Shown: in pieces, positions 35,536 through 51,585 of the stretch
How positions within the stretch are numbered: position 1 is the first letter of the stretch
Layout of the letters: every line of letters starts with the position of its first letter
IMG/VR virus record: IMGVR_UViG_3300002461_000403
Location: 1 to 51,585 of that record
DNA: 51,585 bases
Strand: one strand, 5' to 3'
From: a virus
Lineage: Duplodnaviria; Caudoviricetes
Translations under genes and position numbers: made by a program
The notes under the pieces: model-generated
Databases searched by the model: none
What the model was told of the DNA's origin: nothing
The model's input: only the letters and a program-made list of their open reading frames with translations

Positions 35536-36420
35536 ATGGATATGTCAGCAGCAGCAACCGCCCCGCGCCAACCTCTGATCCCAGAGACGGCACGGGCTCA
35601 CCCGGACTTCGCCGCATACATGGAGCATCGCTCTAGCTGTAATCGCCTGATGATTCAGGCTTCGCGGTGGGAGGACTGGTTGTCTCAGCGCACCTTTCAA
35701 AAGGTGTCTGACGACTGGGCAGCACATCCCCGCTTCAAAGAGTTTCAGCAGTGGATGCGGGATAACAAGGCCGGGGACAGCAAGCGCAACCCCGCCGCCT
35801 TCCCTGAAAACTTCAAAATGTGGCTGGATGGGGCGCGCTGGTAGCGCCCCACTAACCTTAGTAGGAGACTCCCCGGATGAGCGTGTCACCGCTGCAAATC
35901 AATTTCATGCTAACGTGCTACTTCTCTCCCGATCCGGTCGCGCAACTAGGGGAACACCATTGGGACAGCCCGGCCGGACAAGAGGCGCGCGAATGGATGA
36001 TTGTGAACGGCCTAGTTGATGGCAAACACAAGGCCACCGACAAAGGGCGCGCATGGGTAAAAATGATCTGTGCAACGCCGCTCCCGGTGAAGGTCTGGCT
36101 ACACCCGTCCACGGCGCAAGAATTTGAAGCTGAATTGGCGTAAGGACTCCCCCGCAATGAGTGATTTCTGGAATGGACTTGCGAAAACGATAGGCGCTGC
36201 TGTTCTTTTCAGCGCCGCCCTGTTGATCATTGCGCCGTTGAACGCCTTGCTTGGCGCGTTCGCCGGGTGGACCGTCTCCCTATTTTGGGGCGACGAGATA
36301 TTGAATACTCTGCGCGCGTTTGGCGTGCCGCGCGACTTGACGATGTGGCAGCTAGGCGGTGCGTTGGGTTTTGTAAGCGCGTTTCTGCGGACCCGGACAA
36401 CTGTTAAAACTGAAACGTAA
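35536..36420 (+). other. Three small CDSs (35536-35844, 35877-36143, 36157-36420 membrane protein)
   Basis: GGAGG/AGGAG/AAGGA RBSs; the last is hydrophobic. Confidence 0.6.
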
Positions 36421-36645
36421 AGGGAATCCTCGATGGACATGGACAAGCTGGATCGCGTTTCAGAGTTGAGCGATGAGGCTAAAGAGGTTGTCCGCTGGGG
36501 CATCATTTTGGAGGGCGCGTTGCACTTCATAGCTTCGCACATGCAGAACGTGCCAGATCATGTGCGGGACTTCGCCCGCTCGAAAATTATCAACGACGAA
36601 TGATGGAAGGTATTCCCCGCCATGCCTAACGCACAAAGCCATTTA

Positions 36646-39054
36646 TCAGTTTCGGCGCTGAACAACGGCCCTCACGTTTCCAGCTACCAACGCAACAGTT
36701 GCGCCGGTTACGTTCGTAAAGGCACAAGTAACCACACCGTCCGATGATACGTATCCACTAAGCTGAAGCCCCTGAAGACTCTGCGAGTATGTGGCGCGCA
36801 CTAAGTCACCCAAGCGAGCAAGCGGAACCGAGAGCGCAAATGTCGTAGTCGTACCAGTCAAAAATCCCCCTGGCGACCATGCCGCTTGGGCCACCATGTT
36901 TTGCCCGGAATAGCTGAATTCGCTAATTGCTATAGCCGATGTTCCGATTGAATAAAGAGCAGTAGCAAATTCCTCGATTTCGTTCAATCCAACCCTTAGT
37001 TTTTGGGAATATGTGCCACCATTAAAAACATAACAGTGCGGAAACAAATACGTTCCATCAGTGGTGATTGAGTTTGCTGACACATCTACACGGCGACATT
37101 CATCCAATAATATTGCGCCGCCACCAGTATCATAATTAACACCGTTTTTAGTTGTCCGACCCGGCACCATATAGTTGCAATCAACCGAAACGCCGATCGC
37201 GTGCCTACCGCTGACAGCATGCCAGCCAGGATTAACAATCGTGTTATTGTAAACTGAAATGTCGCGGAATGTATGCGCGGGATGCGACGCTAACGCAGTC
37301 GTAAACAGAACACCGGCCCGCTGTGTCGTGTCGGCTACTGGGGCCTGCTGCACCAACGGTAACGCCGCATTTAGTGGGTCAAAATTTCTAGCTGCATCGA
37401 TTATAATATTGTTATTTATTTTAATGCGCTTGGAGTTATCGTACCACCCTGTGGGGCCATCGATTTCCACATTGACGGCTGCATACCATGTGTTTTTACA
37501 AAAATTACTATGGAAGTTGACATCAGCAATACCACCGAAACCGGCGCTCTTTGCGTATGTGTCAGCCAAATGATTGTGGTGAACTCTATAATCACCCACA
37601 TATCGGTTATCTAGCGCCCACGGTGAGTTATAATAGTGGCGCGCAAAAAAACAATCGTCGTGCGCTCGCGTCACTTTATTGTGACACACTTCAATGTTGC
37701 TTAAGCAGTCGTCAAGCAGAATACCCGTATCAGTAAGGTCTGACACCGTATTCCCGCGCAAGACAACATCGGAGGCAGCATATACTATTATAGGCACATT
37801 AAAGTTTTTAACAGTAGCACCTTCCACAAGAACACCGGCTTTTTCTAGCCCGAGCGCCGGAGTAATTCGCCGGTTGCCCTTACCGCCGATGACAATGCCG
37901 CTGTAATATGACGTTCGCTGCGGCGTTGGATCAGACGCATACGTGATGGTCTTAGAGCTGTTAAGGATCAACCCGCCAGTGATGGCGACGTTGTTGCCCT
38001 CAAGAACAATGGCCCCGTTGCCAAATGCTGGTGCGCTAGATGGGTCAAAGTAAACTGTTGTCCCTGGCTCAAACCAAAGCTCAACATTGTCGGCCAAGTC
38101 ACCAGCCGTTAGCTGGTTCGTGCCAATCCGGTCTCTGATCCTGTAGCTAACGGAAGGCTTGGGAAACGCCAGTTTCCCGCCTGTCGTCTTTACAAGGTCA
38201 AACGCGGCTTGAATCGCTGTTCGGTCGTCTGTCGATCCGTCACCAGTCGCGCCAAACCACCTCACATTGACGGGTTTGTCATTCGCTCGCACCCAAGAAC
38301 CAGATGACGACGCCACAGCGTTGGCTTTGATGTAAACGCCTTCCGATGTGTCAGCCGCTATCTGTGAGCTATAGTTTCCAGTCCTCCACATGAACATCCC
38401 TTCGCGGCCTACCTCAGTCAGATAGGCGGTCTGGAATGATGCTGTGTTGAGGGCTTTCAGTGCTGTCCTATCGACACGAGGCAAAGCTGTCGTGATGACG
38501 CCAGCAGCGTTAGCATATGACGCCGCAAGATCAGCGGATGCGTCGGCTTCTGCTGCTTGGGCTGTGGCGATCCCGGCTTGAGTTGTCGCAATTCCGGCTT
38601 GAGTTGTCGCTGTTGTTGCGCTGGTCGCCGCACTCGATGCACTAGAAGCAGCCGCAGAAGCCGATGCTGCGGCAGCGAGTGCGCTATTGGCCCCCGACTG
38701 CGCTACCGCAATGGTGATGTTGCTAACTCCAATCACTGGATCAGTCGCGGTAAATTCGTACTCTCCAGCACCTACAGAGCCGGAGTGAACATAAACCCGC
38801 GTCCCCTTCACGATGTCGTCGGAACCGCTGCAATCCTTCCGCCGCTGCCATAACCCAGTGCTGGCGATTCTAATGCCGTTCAGTTTTTGGTCTGATTGGT
38901 CCTTGACGAGTACCGGATCGCCCTCTGCCAGAGATACGCCGTCAATGGTCTGCAATCCAGACAGCGTAATGTTTGCCGTGGTCGCAACTCGGCATGGAGC
39001 CTTGTGCGCCAGCGAGCCCTTAGCCCCGCCAAGCCGATCAGTCTGCGTTGACAT
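36646..39054 (-). CDS. Tailspike/tail fibre with pectate-lyase-like beta-helix
   Basis: N-terminal ATTANITLSGLQTIDGV anchor, VNVRWFGATGDGSTDDRTAIQAA, Asn-rich PbH repeats. Confidence 0.85.
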   Translation of the reverse strand: MSTQTDRLGGAKGSLAHKAPCRVATTANITLSGLQTIDGVSLAEGDPVLVKDQSDQKLNGIRIASTGLWQRRKDCSGSDDIVKGTRVYVHSGSVGAGEYEFTATDPVIGVSNITIAVAQSGANSALAAAASASAAASSASSAATSATTATTQAGIATTQAGIATAQAAEADASADLAASYANAAGVITTALPRVDRTALKALNTASFQTAYLTEVGREGMFMWRTGNYSSQIAADTSEGVYIKANAVASSSGSWVRANDKPVNVRWFGATGDGSTDDRTAIQAAFDLVKTTGGKLAFPKPSVSYRIRDRIGTNQLTAGDLADNVELWFEPGTTVYFDPSSAPAFGNGAIVLEGNNVAITGGLILNSSKTITYASDPTPQRTSYYSGIVIGGKGNRRITPALGLEKAGVLVEGATVKNFNVPIIVYAASDVVLRGNTVSDLTDTGILLDDCLSNIEVCHNKVTRAHDDCFFARHYYNSPWALDNRYVGDYRVHHNHLADTYAKSAGFGGIADVNFHSNFCKNTWYAAVNVEIDGPTGWYDNSKRIKINNNIIIDAARNFDPLNAALPLVQQAPVADTTQRAGVLFTTALASHPAHTFRDISVYNNTIVNPGWHAVSGRHAIGVSVDCNYMVPGRTTKNGVNYDTGGGAILLDECRRVDVSANSITTDGTYLFPHCYVFNGGTYSQKLRVGLNEIEEFATALYSIGTSAIAISEFSYSGQNMVAQAAWSPGGFLTGTTTTFALSVPLARLGDLVRATYSQSLQGLQLSGYVSSDGVVTCAFTNVTGATVALVAGNVRAVVQRRN

Positions 39055-41397: not shown

Positions 41398-44300
41398 CTA
41401 CGGGCCGCTCGGCGTAAATGCCTCACGCTCTTGGCCTACCCCGTCCATCCATCCGCCCTCGGTGTCCTCATCCGGTTCTGGGAGAAATGGCCGTCCGGCT
41501 GCTGAAAACTCAAGATCAGCCGCCAGATCGTCGGATACTTCCATCGTCGGGTTTGTCTCTACTGGACCACCAAGGCGCATCATTCCGGCTGGACGGCTGA
41601 CCGGCGCATCATCGGGTTCCCAGCCCTTGGCGTCCGCGACAAACTCACTCAAATCTGCCTCGGCGCCCTTGGCCAGAAGTTCCTCCCGAGCCCCGGCCCA
41701 TGCCCGGCGAACGCCCTCGAACGGATAGACCTTGTTCCGGCCCTTGGTCAGCCGGAGCGCTAATTCCTCGGCAACCTCGGGGGCGGCGGCTTCAAGCTCC
41801 TTCATCAAGCCATCGGTCGGCATGATGTCCTTTTGTGCCCAGCCGGGGAGACCGACCGCCACCAGGGCGTTCCGGGCTTCCCGCATGGACAAGTCCTCAA
41901 GGATCTCATTGACGATCTTCTGCTTGGACGGTTGCAAGACGATCTCTTCGGCGTCGTCCCCGGCCTTGTAGATTTCTTTGGAGGTCATGTTGCCCTTGTA
42001 GAGCCGTCCCAGAACCATCTCTTTCCGGATTCCGGACATGGCCGACATGACCTGCTTGGCCCGGTTGAGGGGGTTGATGTCCTGTTCCTTTTCGGCAAAC
42101 TCGACCTCAAGGATGGCATAGGCCCTCTGATCGTCAGAGACGTTGGCCAGGAGATCGCGGGCTTCAGCCCCACGGCCTGAGTTGCGCAGAGACTTGTAGC
42201 CTTCGGCGGCAGAGGTGTATTCGCCGCCCTCGTTTTTCATCTGCTTCCAGAAGGTCTCAGAGGATAGAGACCCACGGCCGGCGCGGCGGGTGAACCGCGA
42301 CAGGATCACAGTGTCCTCGAAAGACTTATCTGCGCGCGGACGATCCGACACGCCGGGGAGCGGCCCACCCAAAGCCTCGTTGGCCATGGGCAGAACGGCA
42401 TCCGATACGGTCTGAATGTCCCGCCCGATCGTCCCGAGCAACCCACCCATGAGGTGGTCGACCTTCTGCGGCGACATACCGGTAATCGAGCCTATCATCC
42501 GACCCATCTCCGACGTGTAGGCGCCGAACTGTAGTTCCGGTGGGAGTTTGGAGAGATCCATCGGGACAATCTCACGGTTCCGGAACGTATCGATGCCCGT
42601 GACCATCTCATAGTAGAGGTTGGCCACATTGACCTCATGCGGCGGAACCATGGTGTGCTTGAGCGACTGCATGAACTTCTCGCCCGCACGTGGATCCTGC
42701 TTCACAACCCGATCAAACGCGCCCTCGAATATCTGCGAGAAGATGGCGAGATCGAACGGTTTCGGGAAACGATACCACGTATCCCCGATCTTAAAGAACC
42801 AATGGGTGGCCTTCATGTAGTCATTGAACTCTTCGTATTCTTCGTCGTCCTTGTAGAGCATGGACAATGTTAGTCCAATCATCCCAAGCACAACCATCTT
42901 GTTGAACGTGCGCGCGGCCATCGGGAGGCCCTTGCGCTCGGCCACTGACAATGGCGTGCCGTTCGTGGCTTTGATGTACGGGGTAATCAGAGCCCGGTAT
43001 CCGGTGAACGCATCCCGCTCCCCCGTGAAGGCGCGGCGGGTTGAGTCGAGACCTTGAAGTGCGGCATTGAGGAACGCCACAATCCGAGAGACTTCCATCG
43101 TCTTAGACCCGCGCCGTGAGAAGTCGATCACGTCATGGGCGGCATAAGCGGCCTCGAACGCGGCTTCCTCTTCCGACATCCCGTCCGCCTTGGCGCGGTT
43201 GAAGGCCGCTTCAAAGTGACCAAACCGCGTCCCGGCTTCCGTGATCTCCATAGCCTTAAGCGAACGCTGCCAGACTTGCCCGATGCCCGACTTGGCCGGG
43301 ACCGCAAAGAACCCCTTCGTCCGCAGCGTCAGAACGTCGTGCTTGTTGGCCGCCTGATCGATGAGGTTGGCGTCGACACCACCCATGAGCCCGGCGAATG
43401 CGGCGTACCGCTTGCCGACCGCATCACTGGTCAGTGCGCTCTTGAGCCCCTTCGCGCCCGTGACAAACGGAACGAAGTTGTCGGACAGAACCCACGTCGA
43501 CAACTGGTCTCTGAGGTAGTTCACCAGCACGTAAGACGGGGCCTTCGTAATGCCGGCCCGGAGCGCCTGAGTGCCAAGCGCTGCGGCATCGACAAGCGGG
43601 TTAGTATCGTTGGAGCCGAACGCCTGGAAGCCCTCAAAGATGTCCTTTGCAATCTCATTGTCGCCCATGCGGATGGGAATCCGCTGGCCACCTTCCCAGA
43701 GGTAAACAATCGGTTCACCGGCTTCAGAGATGTCCGTCGACTGGAAGATCGTTTTAGATGCTTCCCCGTCGAACAGGAGATCGATGGTATCAAGCAACAT
43801 TTGCTGATCGTCCATCGACAGGCCGGACTGCATGGCGGTGAGGCGCATGGTGTCCCGCATCTCGTTTTGTGCGTCTGCCAGGAGGCTATCCCGATCGGCC
43901 TTGTCGAGACCTGTCCGGGCCAATGCTCCACGCAGCGGCTTGGCGAGGCTCGCCACGTCCGCCACCCGGATGCGGGTTGCCTTCATTTGCTTGGCCGGGA
44001 TCCGCTCGGCAATCGCTCCACCGCCCGGTCCTGCTGCACGCGCCACCCGATCCATGGCCCCGATCACCCGATTCATTTCAACACGCTGCTGTGTCGCGAA
44101 CATATCTTGGGCGATGGTTTCGAGCGGGTTGATGAAGTCCCGTGTCGAGCCCTGGAAGCGATAGATCAGGCGGCGCTTGTTCGCGTTTGAACTTCCACCA
44201 AGCATCGACGGTGTTCCGGCGTCCATGATGCGGTTCAACGGGGTGTAGTCCACCCGGTTGCGGTATTCGTCAAACTGCTCTTGCGTCAGGAACCCGGCCT

Positions 44301-46917
44301 CGAACTTGTATCTCAGAAGCTCTTGGCCGAACCGATACATGGTCTGTGCCGCGCGCTTGAACTGCGGGTATTCCTTTTCGAGTTGTGCCGTCGACTTCTG
44401 CCAGACATCCCGCGAGATGATCGTGTCGGGGACGTTCTCCAATTCCCCACGATCATACCGGCTAAACTCTGCCAGCATCCGGCGACCGATCAAGTAAGAG
44501 CCGAACATCTCGGCCATGTCGTCGTTCCACTGGCCCCGGCGAGACCCGCCAAAGGCTTCCGTGAGCGCATCCCAGTAGGACGGGCCGGATGGATCGATCT
44601 GACCCTTGTGGACGATGCCGAACTGCAAGGCCGCCGTGGCGTGCGTCTTGGAGTGTTCTGCCAGACGCCAGAGCTTGTAGGGATCGTGCAGGGCCTTGAC
44701 CACGGCCCGCTCGCCCTTGCCGAGCTTCACGCCGGAGTTTTCGACGGCCTTATCGATCAGGAATTGAACCGCCTTTTTCATCGGGTGACGGGCATCGAAC
44801 GCGGCATGGTAGAACCCATAGAGCCGATCGCCCATGGGCCGCCAGATTTCGCCGGAGAAGCCCGAGATCATCGCGGCTACCTGATTGCCGTCGCCTGTCC
44901 GTCTCGCCGTCTCCGCTGCAATGCGGCCCGCCTCTGCGGCTTCTGAGAGACCGAGGCGGATGGCCTCGATAAATCCAGGCTGTACCGTCGATTGCACGCG
45001 GGCACGGACGGCCGAGACCGGGGCGGCCTTGGCGAGCGCGCCAACGCCTTCCTGCACCATTTGGAACCGGGTGAGCATTTCCGGCTCGGCTGCGTCCAGC
45101 ATGTCCTCGAAGGCATCGTAGAAGCCACGGGACAGAGCTTGCGCCTGTTTCGGGTTGGTCAGGTAGATGCGGAACCACTCGGCAAACCCTTCCGACAATT
45201 CGACATCTGTCGGCGGGATGACGACACGTGGCGTCGGCTGGCCTGATTTGGAGAAACGGGTTGCGGCATAGGCCGGGGCGGTTGCCCGGTCGACCGGCAT
45301 CAGGTCGAGCAACACAGCATCGGCGCGATCGGCTCCAAAGCGGCGGACCAGGGTTTCACGATTGCCCCCGGCGACGCTCTGGAACTGCTCGTACATCGGG
45401 GTGATCTGCTGGAACCGGGCTTCTTGCTGGCGGGACCGGGGGCGGGATTTCAGAACCGCAAGCTCTGCTGCCAAGGTTCGCATCTGCCGCTCGGCATCCA
45501 CCGATTCGATGGCAAGCCGGATAGAGTCCTGGTCCAGTTCGATGCCGGAGAACCCGGTTTGCGGGAACATCGGCACCGGAGCGTTAGCTGCCGGGGGTAC
45601 GGTCAAATCCTCGGCAAACTGCGTCTTGATCGCGGACAAGTCATCGCGGACAGAGGCGCGGATTTCGAGCGCATGGCCGCCCTCATGGGCAAGCGTGGCC
45701 ATATCGTTCTTGAGCGCAAGCCGGACCACGCCCGTTGCGCGGTTGGTCTGCCCCATCATTTCCCCGCCCATCTTGCGGGCGGCACGCTTCATGTCCGGAT
45801 CGAGACGGCCCTGGCGTGCCATACCTTCAAGATCGAGGGCTTTGACAGTATCGGCTACGACATCAGAAAGCCCCTTCTCAGGGGCTTCGGTTTCGCTGTT
45901 CGGATACTGCGGGTTGGTGCCAATACCTAGAGGCTGGTAGTTGCCCCACTTGGCGAGAGAGGCAAGGATGTTGTCGGGAAGTAAGCCCGTATCTCTCCCC
46001 CCTGCTAGAGAGAACATGAGGTTTGCACTATCCGACTGTGCAGGGTCAAAGGCAGCATCTACGCTGCGGATGTTTCGGGTGTCTAGGACGACAAATTCCT
46101 CATCCTCTCCACGGCGGTTCTTAACCGCTATGCTGTCATAGCCTGCATCCTTGAGCGCCTGCGTCCACTCTGCCGTCTGCCGGAGAGACAGCCCGTCTCC
46201 CGCCGTTATGGTCGTGTCCGCAGATGGGAAAATCGCCTCGATCTTGGCGATCATGTTAGGGTCGCGATCATCAAACACGAATGTCTTCTTGGCTCGAACG
46301 TAGAACATGCCCACAGGGCCGTAGCTTTCCGCCACCTCTGGCAATGCAGAAAGGTAGATCCCGTTTCCGTAGAGTCCTTTACGTGCCGACCCGACTTTTT
46401 CTAAATCAAACGCCTTAATGTCTCGAATGTTGTCATCGCCACGGAAAAACACGCGCGAAGTGTCAAATCCCATGCTCTGGGCGCGGTGACGTTTAGCCGC
46501 CTGCGACATATCTAGGTTGTTGGTTTTTGTCGTGGCTTTACCAGACTTGGCGTCGCGCGATGGTTGCGCCTCTCCAAACACGTCAGAGAAATCAACACCT
46601 AAGTCTGCGCCGGATTCAAGCAGGTCTCTAGCTTTTGCATAGCGGCGTGAAATTGGCGGCATAGAGGTTTTGTAACGCTCTACAAACTCTTGCAGAGACG
46701 CCATAGCCTTGTCTTTATTTCCTTTCTCTGCCAAATGACGCGCCGCTACATGCCTCGGGTTGACTGGATCGTATGCAATAGAAGGAGTCGGCGCTCTCCC
46801 CAGTTCTTCAATTCTTCTATTGAGTGAGTCTACATAGGATTGGGGGAGGGGACAGGACGATTTGATCGGACTCCGCAACATCATAGTCAAGCCACGGGGG
46901 GCGGGCGCTGCGCTCAT
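41398..46917 (-). CDS. Large polyvalent protein, C-terminal part: ART-like domain, zincin HExxH domain, LPD38-like domain
   Basis: FRG...GIYLS...GYDSI...EEFVV (ART), LAHEGGH...SEGFAE, WFFKIGDTWYRFPKPFD. No RBS at its start, so probably a continuation of the upstream ORF. Confidence 0.8.
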   Translation of the reverse strand: MSAAPAPRGLTMMLRSPIKSSCPLPQSYVDSLNRRIEELGRAPTPSIAYDPVNPRHVAARHLAEKGNKDKAMASLQEFVERYKTSMPPISRRYAKARDLLESGADLGVDFSDVFGEAQPSRDAKSGKATTKTNNLDMSQAAKRHRAQSMGFDTSRVFFRGDDNIRDIKAFDLEKVGSARKGLYGNGIYLSALPEVAESYGPVGMFYVRAKKTFVFDDRDPNMIAKIEAIFPSADTTITAGDGLSLRQTAEWTQALKDAGYDSIAVKNRRGEDEEFVVLDTRNIRSVDAAFDPAQSDSANLMFSLAGGRDTGLLPDNILASLAKWGNYQPLGIGTNPQYPNSETEAPEKGLSDVVADTVKALDLEGMARQGRLDPDMKRAARKMGGEMMGQTNRATGVVRLALKNDMATLAHEGGHALEIRASVRDDLSAIKTQFAEDLTVPPAANAPVPMFPQTGFSGIELDQDSIRLAIESVDAERQMRTLAAELAVLKSRPRSRQQEARFQQITPMYEQFQSVAGGNRETLVRRFGADRADAVLLDLMPVDRATAPAYAATRFSKSGQPTPRVVIPPTDVELSEGFAEWFRIYLTNPKQAQALSRGFYDAFEDMLDAAEPEMLTRFQMVQEGVGALAKAAPVSAVRARVQSTVQPGFIEAIRLGLSEAAEAGRIAAETARRTGDGNQVAAMISGFSGEIWRPMGDRLYGFYHAAFDARHPMKKAVQFLIDKAVENSGVKLGKGERAVVKALHDPYKLWRLAEHSKTHATAALQFGIVHKGQIDPSGPSYWDALTEAFGGSRRGQWNDDMAEMFGSYLIGRRMLAEFSRYDRGELENVPDTIISRDVWQKSTAQLEKEYPQFKRAAQTMYRFGQELLRYKFEAGFLTQEQFDEYRNRVDYTPLNRIMDAGTPSMLGGSSNANKRRLIYRFQGSTRDFINPLETIAQDMFATQQRVEMNRVIGAMDRVARAAGPGGGAIAERIPAKQMKATRIRVADVASLAKPLRGALARTGLDKADRDSLLADAQNEMRDTMRLTAMQSGLSMDDQQMLLDTIDLLFDGEASKTIFQSTDISEAGEPIVYLWEGGQRIPIRMGDNEIAKDIFEGFQAFGSNDTNPLVDAAALGTQALRAGITKAPSYVLVNYLRDQLSTWVLSDNFVPFVTGAKGLKSALTSDAVGKRYAAFAGLMGGVDANLIDQAANKHDVLTLRTKGFFAVPAKSGIGQVWQRSLKAMEITEAGTRFGHFEAAFNRAKADGMSEEEAAFEAAYAAHDVIDFSRRGSKTMEVSRIVAFLNAALQGLDSTRRAFTGERDAFTGYRALITPYIKATNGTPLSVAERKGLPMAARTFNKMVVLGMIGLTLSMLYKDDEEYEEFNDYMKATHWFFKIGDTWYRFPKPFDLAIFSQIFEGAFDRVVKQDPRAGEKFMQSLKHTMVPPHEVNVANLYYEMVTGIDTFRNREIVPMDLSKLPPELQFGAYTSEMGRMIGSITGMSPQKVDHLMGGLLGTIGRDIQTVSDAVLPMANEALGGPLPGVSDRPRADKSFEDTVILSRFTRRAGRGSLSSETFWKQMKNEGGEYTSAAEGYKSLRNSGRGAEARDLLANVSDDQRAYAILEVEFAEKEQDINPLNRAKQVMSAMSGIRKEMVLGRLYKGNMTSKEIYKAGDDAEEIVLQPSKQKIVNEILEDLSMREARNALVAVGLPGWAQKDIMPTDGLMKELEAAAPEVAEELALRLTKGRNKVYPFEGVRRAWAGAREELLAKGAEADLSEFVADAKGWEPDDAPVSRPAGMMRLGGPVETNPTMEVSDDLAADLEFSAAGRPFLPEPDEDTEGGWMDGVGQEREAFTPSGP

Positions 46918-49900
46918 CTGCGGTTAGGCCTGCCCGCGCCGCTGTTGCACGAGCTTCAACCTCGCCTGCCAGTCGATTGTAGATGTGATACCCACTACCG
47001 CCCATGGCCTGTTTGGAGCGCAGAGCCTCAAACGCTGCATCGTCTTTGGCCAGCGCGATGGACTTTTCGTCCATTGGGCGATCGTCAATGTCGGTAAAGG
47101 GACGCGGGTCTGACTGATCGGCTGCCCAGTCCCGCCGCCATGCCACGTATTCATCAACCCCCATCTTGAGGTGAGCGGCGGCGCTGCGTAGCTCGCTGGC
47201 CTGGACAAAGCGCCGAGCCTGTATGCCGGTCAGCCGTTTGGTCGGCCCCTTGGTTGACAGATTGCCACCAGCGGCAAAGTCTTCGCGATCCTGAATGCCA
47301 TGCTGGATTTCATGCAGAAGAATGCGCCGGATGGCTGCTGCGTCAGGCCCCTCGGCAAACAATGTTTCGCCCGGTGCGCTCGATTGATACCCGCTTGTGC
47401 GCTCCGAGAGGCGCGTTCTCGCGCCAGAGGCTTGCATATCGGGGTATGCCTCGAACACGCCAGAGGCATCGATCACGTCCACAAGATCGCCAGAACGACG
47501 ACCAGTCAGCGCGGCCGAACTGTCATCAATCTCAAACCGCCACTGGCCGTCAACGCCACGGAACCAGCCCGTCGACTTCCAGATCGCCTCGCGTGGTTGC
47601 CCGTTGACCTCCATCTTCTGAGCGTCTTCAAGTGCGGAAAGGTTTGCTGTTAAGGCCGAGGGGCCAGCGAACGACGCCATGACGTTCTCAAACATACCGC
47701 CCGGCTGCTGCTCTGCCTCTTGTGCAGCGGAAAGGATCTCTGCCTTTTCTTCTGCTTCTACAGGTTGGCCGTTGACTGAGACAATCTGGACAAGGTTCTC
47801 ATCGAACACGACTAGGTTTCGGTTGCCATCGCCACGGGCGCGCGAGTCTGCGTCAAGATAGCGAACTCCGACCACGCCAGCGGCTTTTAACTTCTCAGCC
47901 GCTTCGACAGGATTTTTTGCAAGCAAACCGTTCATAAAGGCTGGCCCAACGGGTTGCCCCTTGGTGACGACCCCCTTCCACTCGTGCGGGCCTTGATCCC
48001 ATCCATCTCCTAAAATGGACTGCATTCGTTTGTTTACAAAATCGCTTTGCTCGGCGAGCGGCTTATCCCAGTCCAAGAAGCGCTCTTCGTCAGCATCAAT
48101 GCTAACCTCGTACAAGTGGCCGGGGGGCTCCATCACGTACTGCTTCGACAGCTCGGCGTGCCGACGATCTTCTGGCGAATTTGCAAAGATGTCGTCAATT
48201 CTTTTTAGTGCAAGCTGCGTGTCACCGTTTGTAAAATCAAGCGCTTCCTTGGCCTGATCCATTGCAGCATGATTTCTCGGATTATTGCCAAGGCCGAGAT
48301 GTACTCGATACCACTTCGCTATGCTTTCAGATTCAGCAAAATAGAACCCGTATCCATAGGCTTGCGCTCCTTCTCCGGTTCCGATCCGATCCATGCGGAA
48401 CTTGCGGAACGAATGCGGTGAGCCATGGTAGGCCCGGATGGCAAACATCAGGCCCTTCGGAACGAACGTCCCTCCCATTCCCTCAAGTGCTGGATCGCGC
48501 TTTCCGATGGCCCCTTCATCTATAGCCTGAAACACATCCTCTACAGTCTGGAAGCCTAGACCTCTGAGGGCGTTAGAGAGGCGTTCAAGGAACTGCGCAA
48601 TCCGGTCAACGATGGCGTCGACCTTCGTTCCGTAGGACTGGCCACCCATCCGTTCGGATACCAGAACCGCGACGGCCTCTTCATCCAGCAAATCTTGAAG
48701 GATTGCTTCATCCCAAAGGTTGATGGATTGGAGCGAGGCCACCCGGTCTACCGGATCGAACCCAAACATCTCGACCAGCTTTGTCTCAACGTCCGCCCAT
48801 GGCAGTTTCACGAGATCCACAAACCCGCGACGGGTCAGCATCTCTTTGGCGACCTTGGCGGCGTAACTCTGGCGGTACTCGACCAGCTTGTCCTGGCCAA
48901 TGTCGGAACGGACACGGGCCTTGTTCGCCGCTTCCGTCAGGAGCTTCCATTCGGCGTCTGTGATGAGCCCCAGATCTCTCAGGGCGTGGATTTCCTCATG
49001 CCGGATCGTCGTCAGTGCGTTATCGAGACCGCTTTCTAGCGCAATTTTGATGAGCTTCCGGCCGCTGTCGTAGTAGCCGTTCAGTTCATACTTGCCGATC
49101 TGGATACGGTTCTGAACCTCAACCTGAACGCCCTTATCCTTGATGCGCTTTGCGATCCTGAGAAGCTCGGCCTCGAACTCGCCGCGCTTGGCGTCAAATG
49201 CCGGAGTTGTGACTACACCCGGAGCGTTGACGCCGATGCGGGCTGCAACGTCGTCACCGAAATAGACATCCCGCTCCATCCGCTCCCGGTTCGCCAGGGC
49301 TTCAGGATCACGGGCATTCCAGAATGCCTTGCCATCTTCTGAAAGGGTTTCGACAGGTGGCGGGAGGAAGCGGACACCCGTCGTCGCGATGTCGCGCTCG
49401 ATCATGTCGAATACCGTCGTGGCAATGCCCCGGCCCTGGTATTCAGGATCGACGCTCATGTTCTGCACTGAAACCGCAAAACCGTCCGGGGCCGCATCGG
49501 TGCGTAGATAGAACCGGCCAATCTGAGTTTCATCAGCGGCCGACATTGTTGGAACCACCTCGCGTGAGGTCCGGGCACGTCCGCGATGGACGGTATAGGT
49601 CAGCGTGCCATGGCCAGCACGGGTTTCCACCCGGTATTCTCCCAGGATGATACGGGGAGGGATGGCCACCATCTTGAGGTTTTGGGTGAACTCGAACCAG
49701 TCGTTGACTGCACGGGTAGTTGCGAGCGACATCATCGCATCTTCTAGCGCGACATCCTGTCCACTTGCCTTGCGATTTTCTCCCGTTTCGCCTATATTCT
49801 CAGTGGAAGGAGACCCCGCCATGAGATACTTCGATTGGGATGGTTCGCCCGCAGTGGTGGAGGCCGACAAGGCAGCGGTGGTCAAGTCTGGCGACTGGTT

Positions 49901-51585
49901 GCTTGCGAGCCCTGAGCCCATACTCCGTGCAGCCTGGAGAGAGGCCCCCGAGGTCTCGCGCGACGAACTCTCGGCACTGTACCCCGCCGCCGACCTCTCG
50001 GCCGCCGAAGCCTTGCTGACCGCCAACTCCTGAAAGTCCATCGGCATGTCGGCAACGACTGTCGCGTAAAGCTCCCTCTGTAGCGCCTGTAGACGCGCCT
50101 TGGTGTCGTCATCGACGCCCTCGGCGCGTTCTTGTTCATAGAGCTTATGGCCGCCCCGGTTTTCTTTGGCGTCATACATCCCCGGTGGCCACATCTGCAA
50201 CTCGGCCACAACGCCATTATCGAGGATCACCATCAGCTTGCGGTCAAAGTAGCCGGACGGCGTGACGGCCCACCCTTCATCCACGATCGCGAATCGCTGC
50301 GCCAAGGCATCCACCATGGCATCGGAAACCGCCCGCGACGGCACGGTGAAGCCCGCTCGCGCGAGGTCTGTCAGGTTCCAGGCTTCCCGGCCTTGCAGCT
50401 TTTCTTCGGCTCGTGCGCGGCCCTTCGGCCCTGGATCGGCAATCGGGACGCCGAACTGATCGGCAATCTCTTTGGCAAATGCGGTGAGTTGTGCATGAGC
50501 CTCAACAGCGCGGGGGTAGAGCGCTTCGAAGTCCGCGTCGCCCTGTGATTTCTTGATCGCCAGTTTCAGATCGCGCCAGTCCTTCGGATCGAGCCCTTCG
50601 GACAGGACCGGCTTGCCCGGCTTAGGCATCAGGTCCGCTGCGTTGACCGGCTTCCGGTTCAGTTCCGTGACAACCGTTTCCAGTCTCTTGCGCTTGTCTA
50701 CGAGCTTATCTGTCTGTGGGAACGGCTTAGGTGTTGCCGCTTCCTGCATCTTGGGAAGGGTGTCTTCGTCGCGTGCGATGTCGGCCGACACCTTTGCCGC
50801 GTAGGCCGGAACACCTGTCAAAACCCGAACCCAACGCTGGATCACCTGTCCGGGGTCCGCATCCTCTCCAAGCACAAATGCCTGATCGGCTTGGTAGGTG
50901 GCCGTTCCCTCGATGATCGGCATGACTTCAACGCCGCCGATCGTCTTTTTAACCTCGGCCCGCATCGCAAACGATGAGATTTCGCCAAGGTCAACCGTAG
51001 TCTTATACCACTGCTGGCCAGCCCCTAAGAGATAGCGCTTGACGAACTCGCCTGCTTTCTTGCGGTCATCGACAACCGTGGGCTTGCCCGTGGTTTCCAG
51101 TTTGACCTTGAAGGCATCGCCCCGCATGTCTTCAACGCGCGGAACGTCCTGCTCGTACTGGACGTTGAACGCCTTGAGTGAGGCGACCTTATCTTGCAGG
51201 GCCTTGGCGCTTTTCGCGGCGGCCTTCTGCGACGTGTAATGGGCGCGCTCCGCAACTTCTAGCTTCCTCACCTCCCGCTCAAGTTCGGCCCGTTCAATAA
51301 TAAGCGGGTTGCCCGTGGCGGCGGCTTTTAATTCTGCGGCTTCCGGCAGCGGCGGCGTGATGTCCTCCATGTGGCGAACACCGGCCGCACCGGCATATAA
51401 CTGGCCGATAAACTGCGACTTGCGATCAAGCAACTGCCAGCGGTAGGCGTCGAAGCTCTTGACCGTGATATAGCGGAATATCCGCACTTCCTTGTTCTTG
51501 TTCCCCTGCCGGAGAATACGCCCGTCCCGCTGTTCCAAGTCTGCCGGCCGCCACGGGGCGTCAAGGTGGTGCATGGCGTAAAGGA
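46817..51585 (-). CDS. Large polyvalent (DarB-like) virion protein, middle part: SNF2 helicase C-terminus, RelA/SpoT synthetase, GNAT, metallopeptidase, ART-like, LPD23; 5' end outside the window
   Basis: HHLDAPWRPADLEQRDGRILRQGN; KGRARAEEK/DLAR/SGYFD/AELQ/GHKLYE; VDPEYQGRGIAT; RHEEIH; YHGSPH...GEGAQAYGYGFY; TGWFRGVDGQWRFEIDD...HEIQH...GEVEAR. Confidence 0.85.
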   Translation of the reverse strand, partial: LYAMHHLDAPWRPADLEQRDGRILRQGNKNKEVRIFRYITVKSFDAYRWQLLDRKSQFIGQLYAGAAGVRHMEDITPPLPEAAELKAAATGNPLIIERAELEREVRKLEVAERAHYTSQKAAAKSAKALQDKVASLKAFNVQYEQDVPRVEDMRGDAFKVKLETTGKPTVVDDRKKAGEFVKRYLLGAGQQWYKTTVDLGEISSFAMRAEVKKTIGGVEVMPIIEGTATYQADQAFVLGEDADPGQVIQRWVRVLTGVPAYAAKVSADIARDEDTLPKMQEAATPKPFPQTDKLVDKRKRLETVVTELNRKPVNAADLMPKPGKPVLSEGLDPKDWRDLKLAIKKSQGDADFEALYPRAVEAHAQLTAFAKEIADQFGVPIADPGPKGRARAEEKLQGREAWNLTDLARAGFTVPSRAVSDAMVDALAQRFAIVDEGWAVTPSGYFDRKLMVILDNGVVAELQMWPPGMYDAKENRGGHKLYEQERAEGVDDDTKARLQALQRELYATVVADMPMDFQELAVSKASAAERSAAGYSAESSSRETSGASLQAARSMGSGLASNQSPDLTTAALSASTTAGEPSQSKYLMAGSPSTENIGETGENRKASGQDVALEDAMMSLATTRAVNDWFEFTQNLKMVAIPPRIILGEYRVETRAGHGTLTYTVHRGRARTSREVVPTMSAADETQIGRFYLRTDAAPDGFAVSVQNMSVDPEYQGRGIATTVFDMIERDIATTGVRFLPPPVETLSEDGKAFWNARDPEALANRERMERDVYFGDDVAARIGVNAPGVVTTPAFDAKRGEFEAELLRIAKRIKDKGVQVEVQNRIQIGKYELNGYYDSGRKLIKIALESGLDNALTTIRHEEIHALRDLGLITDAEWKLLTEAANKARVRSDIGQDKLVEYRQSYAAKVAKEMLTRRGFVDLVKLPWADVETKLVEMFGFDPVDRVASLQSINLWDEAILQDLLDEEAVAVLVSERMGGQSYGTKVDAIVDRIAQFLERLSNALRGLGFQTVEDVFQAIDEGAIGKRDPALEGMGGTFVPKGLMFAIRAYHGSPHSFRKFRMDRIGTGEGAQAYGYGFYFAESESIAKWYRVHLGLGNNPRNHAAMDQAKEALDFTNGDTQLALKRIDDIFANSPEDRRHAELSKQYVMEPPGHLYEVSIDADEERFLDWDKPLAEQSDFVNKRMQSILGDGWDQGPHEWKGVVTKGQPVGPAFMNGLLAKNPVEAAEKLKAAGVVGVRYLDADSRARGDGNRNLVVFDENLVQIVSVNGQPVEAEEKAEILSAAQEAEQQPGGMFENVMASFAGPSALTANLSALEDAQKMEVNGQPREAIWKSTGWFRGVDGQWRFEIDDSSAALTGRRSGDLVDVIDASGVFEAYPDMQASGARTRLSERTSGYQSSAPGETLFAEGPDAAAIRRILLHEIQHGIQDREDFAAGGNLSTKGPTKRLTGIQARRFVQASELRSAAAHLKMGVDEYVAWRRDWAADQSDPRPFTDIDDRPMDEKSIALAKDDAAFEALRSKQAMGGSGYHIYNRLAGEVEARATAARAGLTADERSARPPWLDYDVAESDQIVLSPPPILCRLTQ
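49770..49812 (+). promoter_or_regulatory. Internal antisense sigma70 promoter and SD
   Basis: cTTGCGA(49770-75)-N17-TATATT(49793-98), close to the alphaproteobacterial CTTGAC-N17-CTATAT consensus; AAGGAG at 49807-49812, 8 nt before the ATG. Confidence 0.7.
49821..50033 (+). CDS. Nested antisense 70-aa gene; candidate immunity protein for the RelA/SpoT domain
   Basis: MRYFDWDGSPAVVEADKAAVVKSGDWLLASPEPILRAAWREAPEVSRDELSALYPAADLSAAEALLTANS; has its own promoter and SD; the host ORF turns Ser/Ala-rich over the same interval. Confidence 0.75.
   Translation: MRYFDWDGSPAVVEADKAAVVKSGDWLLASPEPILRAAWREAPEVSRDELSALYPAADLSAAEALLTANS

Follow-up and report, generated by a model that had tools for sequence, protein, structure and literature searches.

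A conserved antisense reading frame nested behind the Tas1-like synthetase domain of a phage polyvalent protein: a small gene with a putative immunity function

Can the strand opposite a giant phage gene carry a second gene, and if so, what does the product do for the domain next to which it is encoded? This question is raised by the virus record IMGVR_UViG_3300002461_000403, a stretch of 51,585 nucleotides (nt) that was analysed as a whole and is called the window below. Within the minus-strand gene of a very long polyvalent protein, immediately behind the region encoding a Tas1-like nucleotide synthetase domain, the plus strand holds an open reading frame (ORF) of 70 codons plus stop at 49821..50033 (ATG at 49821, TGA at 50031-50033). 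Homologous ORFs, structure prediction with AlphaFold2 (AF2) and codon usage together make us highly confident that this nested ORF is a genuine gene, lying antisense within the polyvalent protein gene, and its linkage to the synthetase domain favours, with considerably less certainty, an immunity protein or inhibitor as its product.

What speaks for a gene in the window itself? The initial annotation of this DNA had pointed out the ORF, a Shine-Dalgarno (SD) sequence AAGGAG at 49807..49812, 8 nt before the ATG, and a promoter made up of a −35-like hexamer TTGCGA (49770..49775) and, after a 17-nt spacer, a −10-like hexamer TATATT (49793..49798), all on the plus strand; each of these positions and spacings is correct in the sequence. 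In a promoter scan, TTGCGA-N17-TATATT was the sole promoter-like site on both strands of 49300-50500 (one found, 0.2 expected). The nested gene overlaps the synthetase domain by about 10 nt, and coordinate arithmetic bears out the earlier statement that the third codon positions of the sense and antisense frames coincide. A switch of coding dominance between the strands had also been proposed, and it is plainly seen in a codon-usage statistic, the log-odds of the sense minus the antisense frame: the 70 codons of the nested interval score −9.4, against a mean of 28.9 and a standard deviation of 9.8 for 6,996 windows of 71 codons from 13 genes (percentile 0.0013), and the most negative segment of the whole polyvalent gene, 50026..49805, is nearly exactly the nested ORF.

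An open antisense frame by itself is ordinary in this DNA, with stop-to-stop frames of 357, 252, 228, 223, 160 and 152 codons in its two giant genes. The longest antisense ORFs inside the neighbouring giant gene 41398-46917 lie at 43135-44190 (351 amino acids (aa)), 44281-44946 (221 aa) and 45362-45940 (192 aa), all on the plus strand; as no 71-codon window scores below zero in that gene, they were rejected as genes and are taken, from the window's codon usage, as shadows. Likewise, a Pfam match to GhoT_OrtT on an extended, 142-aa version of the plus frame (E-value (E) 0.095) was rejected as noise.

Is the nested ORF conserved? A single-sequence search with the 70-aa product found no homologue, the window region had no blastn or tblastn match in phage and plasmid collections, and a single-protein pattern scan of viral contigs was likewise empty, but a profile of antisense ORFs did find homologues. 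The comparative sample comprises 71 viral loci, in which the synthetase domain is internal to its protein in 57 and terminal in 14. All 57 internal-domain loci have a homologous, protein-like antisense ORF of 66-84 aa, in the frame with coincident third positions, with a start codon 2-15 codons before a conserved core (one locus lacks the start codon because its contig ends, L011) and a stop near the end of the domain. The ORFs share the consensus F..WDGRPAV....A...L..GGDW..V...EV......LS...F...F, and identity to the window's small protein is 14-35% among related loci.

For statistics, a non-redundant set of 31 loci (similarity ratio ≤0.85) was drawn from 58, the 57 viral loci and the window, and the null model kept each sense protein fixed while redrawing synonymous codons from that gene's own usage. 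An SD-like site lies 5-15 nt upstream of the start in 26 of the 31 loci, where the shuffles give 7.4, and a promoter-like pair is present in 16, where they give 1.8. The pair had to show at least 9 of 12 matches to an E. coli-like sigma-70 consensus, while many loci have TATATC-type boxes, which presumably fit the alphaproteobacterial promoter consensus. The chance that the antisense frame stays open under these shuffles has a mean of 0.45 per locus and a product of 10^-13.5 over the 31 loci, a figure that weighs less because the ORFs were delimited to be open. The initial annotation had suggested looking behind homologous domains for a conserved antisense ORF, SD and promoter, and had named antisense stops or a missing SD in homologues as evidence to the contrary; what the loci hold are open frames in 57 of 57, together with the SD-like sites and promoter-like pairs just counted. 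Two loci, L037 and L064, have no SD, and their TATATT/TATACT box ends only 7 nt before the nested ATG; in these, the gene may be translated from a leaderless mRNA.

Does selection act on the antisense frame? As the third positions of both frames coincide, mean BLOSUM62 scores were compared in place of the ratio of non-synonymous to synonymous substitutions; one locus, L043, was left out of the alignments (A2, A5 and A6) as a near-duplicate of L002. Over the tail of the sense protein that lies opposite the nested gene, the antisense frame scores 1.06 and the sense frame 0.63 when the loci are aligned in the antisense frame, and 0.89 against 0.71 when they are aligned in the sense frame. Over the synthetase domain the relation is reversed, with 1.91 for sense and 1.13 for antisense in one alignment and 1.72 against 1.07 in the other, and there the antisense frame is interrupted in each of the 31 loci, by 1-8 stops per 150 codons. 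This flip of dominance between tail and domain, which appears whichever frame is aligned, argues for purifying selection on the antisense frame.

The two products of the same DNA also differ in predicted structure. From an alignment of 30 rows, AF2 gives the antisense protein a mean predicted local distance difference test (pLDDT) of 93.0 and a predicted template modelling score (pTM) of 0.80, with four strands and three helices, whereas for the sense frame over the same stretch of these loci the values are a pLDDT of 53.5 and a pTM of 0.13, with no secondary structure. The small protein, soluble and acidic by its composition, is thus predicted to be a 70-aa α/β protein, and the sense stretch a disordered linker. 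The net charge and isoelectric point of the small protein and of the synthetase domain are in no way discriminating. Searches with the family returned nothing that would give it a name: 30 members have no meaningful Pfam family, matching only weakly and to unrelated models (PEP-CTERM in two, Phage_portal in one); a PDB sequence search gave nothing below E 0.06; Foldseek with the predicted fold had no match at E ≤0.001 in PDB or BFVD; and a search of the ESM Atlas had no usable match. No prior description was found in the literature either, although the tail or the small family might already appear in the supplementary domain tables of PMC5512222 and PMC3482391. Judged by these comparisons, the small protein founds a new family of small proteins tied to Tas1-like synthetase domains.

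Could it be the sense protein that is selected here, with the antisense ORF as its shadow? Directly C-terminal to the synthetase domain, the polyvalent protein has about 70 aa in which Ser, Ala and Thr abound (49823..50029, minus strand; 20% Ser across loci), the stretch of low complexity that had been noticed at the outset. Such a tail might serve as a processing site or a flexible linker, and it is indeed alignable in many homologues: HMMER alignments run through it, protein-level domain matches often continue into it, and relatives that extend past the domain are nearly all rich in Ser and Thr there. Of 103 motif instances, 30 are accompanied by an AG.PSQ-type motif at a distance that stays within 105-125 residues, a further motif resembles M-G-D-T-S-T-x-N-I-G, and the sense frame must stay open in any case, conserved domains being encoded downstream. 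Shuffles that preserve exactly this sense protein nevertheless fail to reproduce the antisense SD (26 loci against 7.4), the promoter (16 against 1.8) and the open frame. Moreover, it is the antisense frame whose substitutions are the more conservative under either alignment and whose product is predicted to fold well, the sense tail being predicted as disordered, and the family has members through which no long sense ORF runs, namely the two orphan copies, the convergent loci and one repeat protein (P0211) described below. The sense motifs themselves turn out, on our reading of the nested loci, to be images of antisense features: Gln corresponds to an antisense Trp codon, Met or Ile to the antisense ATG, D-T-S-T to GGAGG, N-I-G or D-I-G to TATAT(T/C), and V-K or V-N to TTGAC. 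Selection on the sense tail is thus a very improbable explanation. Still less probable is a functionless plus-strand ORF that arose by chance as the shadow of a GC-rich gene. While the many antisense frames of 150-357 codons in the window and the failure of the single-sequence search would suit such a chance frame, it is contradicted by the comparative data, the codon-usage switch and the fold prediction, and the related loci, at 14-35% identity to the window's small protein, are not near-identical copies. One database protein of 2287 aa (P0004) has two tandem synthetase domains, behind each of which comes a separate Ser-rich tail containing AGRPSQ, and presumably contains two nested genes in one ORF.

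What, then, is the domain behind which the gene is kept? A Tas1/Apk1-like nucleotide pyrophosphokinase domain of the RelA/SpoT superfamily occupies 50024..50497 on the minus strand (envelope of a hidden Markov model (HMM), about residues 363-520 of the open frame). The initial annotation had recognized this synthetase domain rightly, with limits of about 50090-50530 that differ slightly from these. The window's single domain sequence matches Tas1, a (p)ppApp synthetase toxin of the type VI secretion system (PDB 6ox6), with E 4.6e-4 in a phmmer search of the PDB, and a profile of 30 domain sequences (A5) matches it with E 1.5e-17, profile positions 2-152 corresponding to Tas1 residues 261-435, the whole toxin domain; the second PDB match of the profile is SaSAS (8vx3, E 8e-4). 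The Pfam model RelA_SpoT (PF04607) is not matched above threshold, with no Pfam match for the window's domain and a match for two of 30 relatives (E 0.011), so that the clade is too divergent for this model and its membership in the RelA/SpoT homologues rests on the match to Tas1. Invariant in the 30 sequences are K28, D47, R50, G52, D76, E77, D88, E102, Q104, W106 and K114, which form the motifs K, D..R.G, DE and E.Q.W, the E.Q aligning to the GEIQV stretch of Tas1. The conserved acidic and basic residues presumably have catalytic roles, and the invariant columns would fit an intact active site. The domain family is large, with 657 representatives at E ≤0.001.

The polyvalent protein ORF extends over 46817..51585 on the minus strand (listed as ORF 46817-51574), its 5′ end being cut by the end of the record, and its multi-domain product is probably delivered with the virion, as judged from the ORF list, the translation and Pfam. 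Pfam finds LPD23 at residues 1301-1356 (E 1.6e-24) and a weak match to ART-PolyVal, and the start of the minus ORF 46817-51574 is presumably the tail of an SNF2-type helicase, a motif recognized by eye in the translation, with no tool match. Downstream of the linker, the protein (P0001) has two HExxH motifs, H-E-E-I-H at about 48930-48960 and H-E-I-Q-H at about 47400-47420, which may belong to processing metallopeptidase modules; LPD23 lies some 50 residues ahead of H-E-I-Q-H and leaves that motif uncovered.

Where is the small gene found outside the nested arrangement? A copy is present in 66 of the 71 viral loci, nested in 57, convergent in eight and co-directional in one. The latter nine are terminal-domain loci: in eight of these 14, the small gene lies convergent and directly downstream, overlapping the 3′ end of the synthetase gene by 22-85 nt, with third positions coincident as in the nested form in all eight; in one, it lies co-directional, 128 nt downstream (E 9.4e-18). 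Six loci come from bacterial genomes, four of them with the gene nested in synthetase-bearing ORFs of 1100-1481 aa, while the other two (L072 and L073) are free-standing orphan copies, with neither a synthetase in the locus nor a long ORF on the opposite strand; carriers among cultured Alphaproteobacteria, with the gene nested or in tandem, include Pleomorphomonas koreensis DSM 23070 (L076), Palleronia pelagia DSM 26893 (L077) and Aminobacter aminovorans (P0211 and an L050-type prophage). A profile search of protein databases added 58 short homologues, all 'hypothetical proteins' (E down to 2e-17) and including entries from Labrys monachus, Blastochloris tepida and a Xanthobacteraceae metagenome-assembled genome, and 13 longer ones, of which nine have 2-4 tandem domains. 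An annotated Aminobacter protein of 706 aa (P0211) has four repeats, preceded by about 280 N-terminal aa that seem, by eye, to span the membrane. In another database protein, P0053, the small-protein domain is fused in frame after the synthetase domain (profile E 1.6e-6); BLASTP of the window's ORF against it had not been significant (E 0.27) before the profile matched it. Extra tandem copies stand beside the polyvalent gene in four viral loci, just beyond it and on the opposite strand to it (L050 4429-5454, L059 and L060 4350-5456, L061 4475-5116; minus strand), and their proteins consist of 2-4 diverged small-protein repeats joined by Pro/Ala-rich linkers.

What can be discerned from this distribution about function? 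ToxSAS enzymes are encoded alongside immunity proteins, according to the parts of PMC12691689 that treat them, and immunity genes are described in passages of PMC3482391 as small, adjacent and single-domain, forming polyimmunity proteins and orphan copies. The linkage of the small gene to the synthetase domain is kept in four arrangements, and together with the tandem-repeat proteins and the orphan copies it favours an immunity protein or inhibitor of the domain, which we consider the likelier role; the proposal of an embedded immunity gene in the initial annotation thus gains support, which is that of guilt by association and no demonstration. Its companion idea, in which the domain's internal place is what keeps the gene convergent and nested, fits the eight of 14 terminal-domain loci with the same gene convergent downstream. 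The nested gene would be read from its own sigma-70-type promoter and ribosome-binding site, and the small protein would bind the synthetase domain and keep it harmless, a protection that might be relevant in the producing cell, in a lysogen or after injection, while from the other strand of the same DNA the polyvalent protein would read a disordered Ser-rich linker. A complex prediction for the synthetase domain (A5) and the small protein (A2) scored 0.00; run with no controls, it is neutral on binding.

Several points weigh against a genuine gene with an immunity product. The loci are related, so that the counts are not fully independent; the observed values for 'open' and 'start' follow from how the ORFs had been delimited; and the HMM behind the copy counts was built from 29 of the 57 nested loci and is partly self-matching. 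By the rule used, 15 of the 31 loci have no promoter-like pair, and five have no SD-like site. No copy of the small gene is detectable by profile search in five of the 14 terminal-domain loci (L055 and L065-L068), whose synthetase genes form a divergent subgroup that may have a different partner or none. Finally, the small protein has no similarity to Tis1, to Imm families or to any entry of Pfam, PDB or BFVD, which leaves the immunity role to gene linkage, and an in-frame fusion such as P0053 is unusual for a simple immunity protein.

These last two points lead to a different reading of a real gene, in which its product is no inhibitor: it might activate the synthetase or act as its cofactor, serve the polyvalent protein as a chaperone or packaging adaptor, regulate lysogeny, or be an anti-defence protein merely carried along with the domain. 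All evidence for the gene fits any such partner role, the lack of similarity to known immunity families agrees with it, and the fusion in P0053 would be in keeping with a domain that has a regulatory or accessory role. A chaperone or cofactor, however, would scarcely account for the orphans L072 and L073 without a nearby synthetase and the proteins of 2-4 diverged tandem repeats, both of which are hallmarks of immunity proteins as far as PMC3482391 describes them; and a convergent gene with its own promoter mirrors the colicin immunity genes, which in the ionophoric type stand on the opposite strand under a promoter of their own, as outlined in PMC9517006. Thus, we regard a non-inhibitory partner as a serious but lesser possibility, and an immunity protein or inhibitor remains the preferred reading.

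If the product is indeed an antidote, the nested layout could be more than a way of saving space. It is conceivable, though we would put this forward only tentatively, that it evolved as a control device, in which a constitutive or early promoter for the host RNA polymerase inside a late structural gene makes the antidote independently of the toxin-bearing polyvalent protein. Were this true, lysogens and bacteria with orphan or tandem copies would be immune to synthetase injected by kin phages, amounting to kin discrimination at the phage level or a superinfection system, and convergent transcription could in addition damp production of the toxin-bearing protein. The locus would also show clearly how a long ORF can overprint an older gene: its disordered linker would derive from the antisense of an immunity gene, and more than 50 phage and prophage loci would have preserved some 200 nt that code on both strands.

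How might such a layout have arisen? The ancestor was probably a convergent pair of toxin and immunity genes with already overlapping 3′ ends, whose synthetase ORF would then have extended through the small gene into downstream domains, in phase with coincident third positions, the extension over the antisense of the small gene creating the disordered linker. The codon phase shared by the convergent and nested forms suggests this extension through the antisense of a pre-existing small gene, so that the small gene seems older and the long ORF overprinted across it. The reverse route, in which truncation of the internal form yields the terminal, convergent form, is possible.

The setting is that of a temperate tailed phage, as deduced from the genes for a large terminase subunit, a tail fibre/spike protein, an amidase/endolysin and an integrase in the record, the completeness of which is estimated at 93%. 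Its right end is taken up by two giant minus-strand ORFs, 41398-46917 and the one from 46817 to the end of the record. Pfam finds large polyvalent protein domains (LPD38, LPD23, ART-PolyVal) in both, with LPD38 and ART-PolyVal in 41398-46917, and by their great length, multi-domain make-up with LPD and effector domains, and phage context, we class both products as polyvalent proteins, as Iyer et al. (2017) use the term. The two ORFs overlap by 101 nt in different frames (46817-46917; end of the upstream ORF at 46817, ATG of the downstream one at 46917), which may reflect a single protein divided by a frameshift, programmed frameshifting, or merely a true start that comes later. Elsewhere in the record, GC content falls to 0.506 at 36001-38000, from about 0.58-0.61 in the remainder, over the tail fibre/spike gene (36646-39054), a pattern typical of a recently exchanged host-range module.

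Long nested antisense genes are, in general, still a matter of dispute. For long antisense protein-coding genes that are fully nested in another gene, the present one ranks, among the cases known to us from prokaryotic viruses, with the best on comparative grounds, its strengths being the conserved start codon, ribosome-binding site and promoter, the confident fold prediction and the free-standing relatives. Since gene callers miss the nested gene, surveys of toxin-immunity pairs in polyvalent proteins would wrongly score such toxins as having no immunity gene, and where a giant phage protein has conserved 'low-complexity linkers' with unusual motifs, these can be shadows of genes and regulatory signals. 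The new family would also offer a direct handle on the phage's control of an injected (p)ppApp-type toxin domain.

How does the system compare with those already known? Immunity genes of the ionophoric colicins encode membrane proteins, whereas the small protein here is predicted to be soluble and acidic, and they are intergenic, whereas the small gene overlaps the toxin-bearing ORF or lies wholly inside it. CapRel, in turn, is reportedly a toxSAS with its antitoxin fused to it. In P0053 the small-protein domain directly follows the synthetase domain in one frame, a layout like that of the toxSAS of the CapRel type named in PMC12691689, while the window's version is a separate antisense gene. 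The likeness to the ionophoric colicins lies in the immunity gene opposite the toxin strand with its own promoter, as portrayed in PMC9517006, which here takes the form of a convergent small gene with conserved promoter and SD. Antisense overlapping genes such as the candidates of enterohaemorrhagic Escherichia coli (PMC9927249) and asp of human immunodeficiency virus 1 (PMC8781085) likewise yield two proteins from opposite strands of the same DNA, but are mostly lineage-restricted and debated, whereas the nested gene keeps start, SD and promoter at 14-35% identity to the window's small protein and has free-standing homologues. As for the polyvalent proteins of Iyer et al. (2017; PMC5512222), LPD23, LPD38 and ART-PolyVal recur in the window, and RelA/SpoT is listed there as a phage-type module; the word 'antisense' and a gene nested behind that module are absent from the article's text, from which its supplements may differ. 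A further comparison is with the (p)ppApp-synthetase toxin/immunity pairs Tas1 (Apk1)-Tis1 and MuF-Apk2. By sequence, the toxin-like domain is clearly related to Tas1, and the small gene is genetically locked to it, as in the toxSAS/immunity pairs covered in parts of PMC12691689 and PMC12226406. In contrast to Tas1-Tis1 and MuF-Apk2, the domain, known here from its sequence, is internal to a polyvalent protein and not a C-terminal toxin tip, and its partner, which has no detectable similarity to Tis1, is encoded not co-operonically downstream but in antisense, fully nested within the gene of the protein it may serve to restrain.

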